Shown one piece after another: positions 39,819 through 39,997 of a stretch of 64,000 nt of DNA (its first letter is position 1; each line of letters opens with the position of its first letter). The position numbers and the translations under genes were made by a program. The notes under the pieces are model-generated. The model ran no database searches. It saw only the letters and a program-made list of their open reading frames with translations, and was not told the DNA's origin. The stretch lies in NCBI RefSeq assembly GCF_053078305.1, contig NZ_CP166879.1; one strand, 5' to 3'.

Positions 39819-39948
39819 TAACAGGCAAAAAAAAGCCGACTCATCAAAGTCGGCGTCGTACGAATCAATTGTGCTATGCAGTAATTCAAAAAAGGAAGTA
39901 AGACAATATGGAGCGCAACGCCCATCGCTTGACGTTGCATTCACCTGC
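39819..39948 (-). ncRNA. fnrS: FnrS small RNA (FNR-activated, anaerobic)
   Basis: Reverse strand reads GCAGGTGAATGCAACGTCAAGCGATGGGCGTTGCGCTCC...GCCGACTTTGATGAGTCGGCTTTTTTTT. Confidence 0.8.
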
Positions 39949-39983
39949 AAGAGAGATATTGCCCTGAATGGGTAGAGAGTTTA

Positions 39984-39997
39984 TTGACTTCGCTCAA
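39984..39997 (-). promoter_or_regulatory. FNR/CRP-family binding site in the fnrS promoter
   Basis: TTGAGCGAAGTCAA (minus-strand sense) centred about 42 bp upstream of the inferred FnrS 5' end; consensus TTGAT-N4-ATCAA. Confidence 0.6.

Follow-up and report, generated by a model that had tools for sequence, protein, structure and literature searches.

In Escherichia coli K-12, the small RNA (sRNA) FnrS acts with Hfq by pairing at the translation-initiation regions of mRNAs that are not needed without oxygen; translation of these mRNAs is blocked and their levels are lowered. FnrS was described by Durand and Storz (2010) and Boysen et al. (2010), and its gene (fnrS, b4699; Rfam family RF01796) is annotated in K-12 at 1409129..1409250, between zntB and ynaL/dbpA. 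It has been reported that FnrS is controlled by FNR, is made when cells pass to anaerobic growth and, assisted by Hfq, pairs with the 5' UTR of iscR and blocks its translation (PMC11572966). Eleven operons of the indirect FNR regulon have been attributed to FnrS in published work. RyhB resembles FnrS in that one transcription factor controls an Hfq-binding sRNA of about 100 nt that silences a set of mRNAs. The FnrS targets sodA, sodB and marA are also targets of RyhB (PMC8595263), and the isc operon is under the control of both (PMC8595263, PMC11572966). However, RyhB is linked to iron rather than to oxygen, is repressed by Fur rather than activated by FNR, is unrelated to FnrS in sequence and is encoded at another locus. 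An FNR-dependent sRNA also exists outside the Enterobacterales, namely AniS of Neisseria, whose anaerobic induction depends on an FNR-type box, in a manner analogous to FnrS; we know of no sequence relationship between AniS and FnrS.

We analysed a stretch of 64,000 nucleotides from contig NZ_CP166879.1 (RefSeq assembly GCF_053078305.1; hereafter called the window), in which an earlier note had recognised the FnrS sequence and its terminator on the minus strand and had named comparison with an FnrS covariance model as a check. The comparison agreed with that identification: a match to RF01796 (entered in Rfam under the name 'frnS') was found at 39948..39831 on the minus strand, with 134.8 bits (gathering score 60) and E = 4.4e-24, and the match spanned model positions 1-119 of 119. 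A permissive Rfam scan of 39480-40080 gave no credible family other than FnrS. By alignment, the segment from the zntB stop codon to the end of the T-run, including promoter and gene, was 100% identical to that of E. coli K-12, and over the 501 nt that link the zntB end with the dbpA start, the identity to K-12 MG1655 was 99%. Both differences in the 501 nt compared fall inside ynaL, one being a G instead of an A in the Shine-Dalgarno region and the other a synonymous GAA/GAG change.

Taken with the RF01796 match, mapping of K-12 fnrS through this alignment placed the 122-nt FnrS sRNA at 39827..39948 on the minus strand. The minus strand from 39948 begins with GCAGGTGAATGC (in a longer readout of the same start, GCAGGTGAATGCAACG). 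The mutants fnrS-I, fnrS-II and fnrS-III were defined by Durand and Storz (2010) and are listed in PMC8595263, and the bases at the mutated positions (U57A/U58G/U59A, C47A/U48A/U49G and G4C/G5U, respectively) agree with a +1 at 39948. We estimate a probability of about 0.97 that 39827..39948 (-) is fnrS, the gene of a 122-nt Hfq-dependent sRNA, with an FNR-activated class II promoter. This finding is already known in every defining respect. K-12 FnrS has the same 122-nt sequence, the same FNR box at -42.5, the same -10 region and terminator, and the same setting between zntB and ynaL/dbpA, and there is no difference in the gene or its promoter. At an identity of at least 95%, the locus was found in 5392 of the 5426 complete E. 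coli genomes, and the sRNA is left unannotated by RefSeq in most E. coli genomes. The interval 39819..39997, within which the earlier note had placed the sRNA and its FNR box, does frame promoter and gene, but it overshoots the 3' end (39827) by 8 nt. We also considered fnrS as a gene for a peptide and rejected this reading: the 47-aa ATG ORF at 39940..39797 (-) overruns the 3' end of the RNA, and the sRNA contains no internal stop codon.

The FNR binding site TTGAGCGAAGTCAA lies at 39984..39997 (-), and its centre, between 39991 and 39990, is at -42.5 relative to the +1 at 39948, as for a class II activator. In the class II position, about -41.5 to -42.5 from the start, the activator site is located where the -35 element would otherwise sit; the box is of the FNR consensus type TTGAT-N4-ATCAA. 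An FNR box centred about 42 bp upstream of the 5' end had been proposed from the letters alone, and both the exact 14-mer and its position are those of published ChIP-seq data. In the FNR ChIP-seq of Myers 2013 (PMC3688515), fnrS has a peak whose top site is TTGAGCGAAGTCAA (supplementary file 6), at -42.5 (Table 1), and the sigma70 ChIP signal at the fnrS promoter was 54 under aerobic and 11,803 under anaerobic conditions, a rise of about 200-fold. Grainger 2007 (PMC1802558) reported a ChIP-chip peak and an electrophoretic mobility shift (EMSA) for FNR on the same site. The motif TTGA-N6-TCAA as such has three matches in the 64 kb of the window, where 1.57 would be expected, and three or more were obtained in 27 of 100 shuffles; the motif alone is thus not beyond chance, and its significance comes from its position, the published ChIP data and its conservation. 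The two other matches, TTGAAACGTGTCAA at 16965..16978 and TTGACAAATATCAA at 49518..49531, bring the number only to the chance level. A consensus scan of 39300-40300 showed no sigma70 -35/-10 pair at the FnrS promoter, as expected of a class II activator-dependent promoter.

For comparison, we collected 120 loci, one per species, from the Enterobacterales (genera from Escherichia to Yersinia, Serratia, Pectobacterium, Erwinia, Edwardsiella, Photorhabdus and Arsenophonus) by means of a 27-base degenerate pattern inside FnrS nt 4-42. Because this pattern fixes 27 bases there, conservation of nt 4-42 is built into the set; neither the promoter nor the 3' half of FnrS was constrained by the pattern. 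In 117 of these 120 loci the FNR box occupied -49..-36, and its half-sites, TTGA and TCAA, hardly varied: 117-119 loci kept T(-48), G(-47), T(-39), C(-38), A(-37) and A(-36). Positions -30 to -18 varied freely. Closer to the start, G(-14), C(-13), A(-12) and T(-8) were again kept in 117-119 of the 120 loci and their neighbours varied, which points to a -10 hexamer of the CAnnnT type, here probably CAATAT at 39961..39956 (-13..-8; minus strand).

The architecture of the RNA was consistent with that of the family. A 5' stem-loop is formed by nt 10-35 (39914..39939, minus strand) in the minimum free energy (MFE) fold, the centroid fold and the Rfam consensus structure, and G4/G5, which are mutated in fnrS-III, are found just 5' of it at 39945-39944. 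Downstream lies the C/U-rich pairing region UGUCUUACUUCCUUUUUU (nt 44-61; 39888..39905, minus strand), which is largely unpaired as judged from the Rfam consensus, the fold and the published mutants. In the Rfam consensus structure, the whole of nt 44-61 is unpaired; in the MFE and centroid folds, nt 45-47 and 49-51 are paired in a weak outer helix and nt 52-61 are open. This region is nearly invariant between genera and holds the fnrS-II site C47-U49 (39902-39900) and the fnrS-I site U57-U59 (39892-39890). The target-pairing residues, G4-G5 and the C/U-rich nt 47-59, are thus intact at their expected positions. A second small stem-loop (nt 62-87; 39862..39887, minus strand) was seen in the MFE fold and the Rfam consensus. 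The RNA ends in an intrinsic terminator at 39827..39854 (-) with an 8-bp stem, a 4-nt loop and U8, which was identified by terminator scan, hairpin energy and covariation and which, with the identity to K-12, bears out the terminator of the earlier note. Its hairpin, GCCGACTT-TGAT-GAGTCGGC at 39854..39835, has a dG of -12.4 kcal/mol; T8 comes next, at 39834..39827. As in other sRNAs, the U-tail probably forms the Hfq-binding 3' end.

The terminator stem covaries between genera, with G-C in 13 and A-U in 11 at one pair and C-G in 18 and U-A in 9 at another, and each of the 118 loci that extend far enough downstream had a T-run of 6-9 near +120. Over 31 genera, hardly any change is seen in the first ~95 nt, so there is almost no covariation support for the two 5' hairpins: just two or three compensatory events were found in these, including changes of C-G to U-A and of G-C to A-U in the 5' stem-loop in Photorhabdus and Arsenophonus. 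The fold energy of FnrS is unremarkable (z = -1.67; 14 of 200 shuffles folded equally well). This modest z-score and the chance frequency of the TTGA-N6-TCAA motif in the window are what one would see if a hairpin, a T-run and a fortuitous motif had come together without any RNA gene. Such a chance resemblance is, however, refuted by the covariance-model match, by the identity to the experimentally characterised K-12 gene and by the conservation of the whole unit in 120 species, and we consider it vanishingly improbable.

Upstream of fnrS, on the same strand, is zntB (also named ydaN; 40044..41027), whose stop codon is 95 nt from the FnrS +1. In K-12 and other RefSeq annotations, a 15-aa ORF, ynaN, lies just upstream of zntB; its equivalent in the window would be 41041..41088 (-), by homology to positions 3490..3537 of locus L001. 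In 92 of 99 loci, zntB lay upstream of fnrS in the same orientation, with the spacing of about 95 nt kept; Rahnella and Rouxiella were exceptions. A terminator scan of the interval between the zntB stop and the FnrS +1 (39949..40043) gave no terminator-like site, and zntB transcripts therefore probably end at the FnrS terminator. This missing site and the linkage at ~95 nt in most species would also fit FnrS being, in whole or in part, a 3'-UTR-type product of zntB, whose transcripts would share its terminator and might yield an FnrS-like RNA by processing, without FNR. However, the analysis gave no sign of a processing site, FnrS owns a conserved FNR-dependent promoter at which sigma70 rises very strongly under anaerobic conditions, and a terminator shared with zntB fits an autonomous fnrS gene and is no alternative to it. 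We thus regard an origin from zntB transcripts as unlikely, and transcription of fnrS from its own promoter as the preferred reading.

On the downstream side, fnrS is co-oriented with ynaL (39596..39769, minus strand) and then dbpA, which encodes a DEAD-box RNA helicase from a GTG start (38193..39566, minus strand), and only 57 nt separate the FnrS 3' end from the ynaL ATG. The orientation towards dbpA given in the earlier note was therefore correct, as was the geometry of its conditional statement that read-through past the terminator would enter the small Pro-rich ORF and dbpA. In a stronger form of this idea, the FNR box would drive a long fnrS-ynaL-dbpA mRNA, FnrS would be a leader or attenuation product, and dbpA would be induced anaerobically by terminator read-through. 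The co-orientation and the short spacer are compatible with such a unit, as is the lack of a consensus sigma70 promoter in 39300-40300. Furthermore, the FNR peak was assigned to dbpA by Grainger 2007 (PMC1802558), an assignment repeated in PMC4229854; FnrS was then unknown, which explains the choice of dbpA.

However, the lacZ fusion made in that work already bears on read-through. Its primers map to 40187..40166 (with one mismatch) and 39587..39564, so that the fused fragment, equivalent to 40187..39564 of the window, contains the 3' end of zntB, the box, fnrS, the terminator, ynaL and the dbpA GTG; the fusion was weakly active and changed only marginally upon deletion of fnr (PMC1802558). 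In RNA-seq of Shigella flexneri (PMC4229854), the log2 fold change of dbpA in anaerobic versus aerobic cultures was -1.86 and the effect of fnr was not significant, and dbpA appears in none of 15 supplementary tables of FNR-dependent genes from Myers 2013 (PMC3688515). These published data show no FNR-dependent or anaerobic increase of dbpA of the kind that a fnrS-ynaL-dbpA read-through unit would produce. The Term-seq supplements of Adams 2021 hold no entries for fnrS, ynaL or dbpA. The strong terminator (8 bp, -12.4 kcal/mol, U8) also argues against read-through, and so does gene order: among the 84 species loci that reach 1.5 kb or more downstream, the gene after fnrS was a convergent ttcA in 45 and dbpA in 30, and the remaining 9 were arranged otherwise. 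The adjacency of fnrS and dbpA, as judged from the loci compared, is restricted to one clade, and the linkage to zntB in 92 of 99 loci as against dbpA in 30 of 84 indicates that FnrS is anciently tied to zntB and not to dbpA. Functional coupling between FnrS and dbpA is therefore not supported, since the available experimental and comparative evidence argues against it, and we consider the long FNR-driven mRNA very improbable. fnrS as an independent, terminated transcription unit remains the reading that we prefer.

The small Pro-rich ORF itself is ynaL (b4743), which encodes 57 aa and is annotated by RefSeq as 'proline-rich small protein YnaL'. The tagged YnaL protein has been detected (VanOrsdel 2018, PMC6001520). 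ynaL was present in 29 of 31 examined loci in which dbpA is adjacent. Its Shine-Dalgarno sequence is strong, and third-codon positions vary within its conserved core, DPIPRPQPMPDPPPDEEPIK, which is the signature of a real coding gene. The conserved polyproline core is PDPPPDE with DPP, PPP and PPD motifs, of which DPPPDE is invariant, and 29 nt lie between the end of the ORF and the weak GTG start codon of dbpA. As judged from the sequence, such an arrangement could be that of an EF-P-sensitive leader ORF. In strain STEC388 (locus L125), an IS1 element is inserted in the 57-nt spacer between FnrS and ynaL.

Two blocks, CCGATTAAAwTGTCGC and AGATCTGmGAGGATACGCGCC, extend over about 50 nt across the 3' end of ynaL, upstream of the dbpA start (approximately 39645..39600, minus strand). 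Both were invariant at the nucleotide level, synonymous sites included, in about 30 species (within loci L003-L122). They persist in Kluyvera despite the loss of the Pro-rich ORF, and also in Enterobacter, Lelliottia and Kosakonia, in which an in-frame stop cuts the ORF to 49-50 aa. In several genera an in-frame TAG, TAA or TGA occurs near the same place (after ...SHR or ...MSR), and beyond this early stop both the ...RSARIRAC frame and the nucleotides are preserved (loci L008, L071, L084, L080, L045, L018, L037, L047 and L055). Because the blocks are kept where the ORF is lost or stops early, they suggest a constraint on RNA or DNA rather than on protein. RNAalifold analysis of the ynaL 3' end and the dbpA leader in 29 species gave no conserved RNA structure beyond two tiny invariant hairpins (-4.6 kcal/mol) without covariation. 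We also considered the dbpA leader as a mimic of the 23S rRNA target of DbpA (hairpin 92 region) and rejected it, since alignment scores were at the level of shuffles: local alignment of 39660..39530 (-) with K-12 rrlH scored 19 for the whole gene and 14 for nt 2401-2650, versus shuffle means of 20.0 and 15.6, respectively. No antisense match of the dbpA leader to 23S rRNA was found.

Another conserved block, TTTTTTTTGCCT-N~12-CAGCGTCTACCCTwwAAG (39834..39796, minus strand), follows the stem of the FnrS terminator and overlaps its tail (TTTTTTTTGCCT ... TCTACCCT); it is kept only where ynaL-dbpA is present. Inspected by eye, this block offers a weak candidate for a sigma70 promoter of ynaL-dbpA (TTGCCT, 16 nt, TACCCT) that would overlap the terminator tail. 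In Kluyvera, the TACCCT of the candidate promoter is kept and the spacing to the -35 is not, and the consensus scan of 39300-40300 gave no consensus sigma70 promoter for ynaL-dbpA. The DPPPDE core, the ~50-nt invariant block and the conserved block at the FnrS terminator tail together raise the idea that ynaL could be an EF-P- or proline-sensing leader ORF that sets dbpA expression, with entry into the ynaL-dbpA unit controlled by FnrS termination or by the terminator-overlapping promoter. We offer this as a speculative proposal to which we give a low probability.

Besides FnrS, four other Rfam matches above the gathering score were found in the window: MicC at 34900..35020 (-, 125.3 bits), McaS/IsrA at 43326..43421 (+, 118.4 bits), RydC at 2170..2233 (+, 92.5 bits) and the sok antitoxin RNA at 1459..1610 (+, 109.7 bits), the last of which implies a chromosomal hok/sok-type locus. 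In the region of about 35020..38064, some 2.1 kb separate MicC from the gene ttcA (37129..38064, plus strand). Genomes that are collinear with the window have ttcA directly after uspF and ompN, and this contiguous arrangement was found in 3494 of the 5426 complete genomes; in K-12 and in O145 strains, the Rac prophage is integrated next to ttcA. Rac is therefore absent here; the present strain differs in this respect from K-12, which carries Rac beyond ttcA.

Anaerobic induction and Hfq binding in the present strain would follow from the identity of its sequence to that of K-12. When oxygen is absent, FNR would bind TTGAGCGAAGTCAA and recruit RNA polymerase to the CAATAT -10, and transcription of FnrS would start at G39948. 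It would stop at the GC-rich hairpin and U8, at 39827, leaving a U-tail that would serve as the Hfq-binding 3' end. The same terminator would probably also end zntB transcripts, and little transcription would be expected to pass into ynaL-dbpA.

FnrS has been known since 2010, together with its FNR box and its part in the reprogramming of anaerobic metabolism; the present copy is identical to that of K-12. What is gained here is the exact coordinates of a gene that RefSeq omits in most E. coli genomes, and the recognition that read-through from FnrS to dbpA was in effect already tested by a published lacZ fusion and found to be negligible. The sole unexplained items, and the sole part of the locus that might repay further work, are the conserved elements around ynaL and the leader of dbpA. 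The comparison of loci adds that both the FNR box and its spacing are constant throughout the Enterobacterales.
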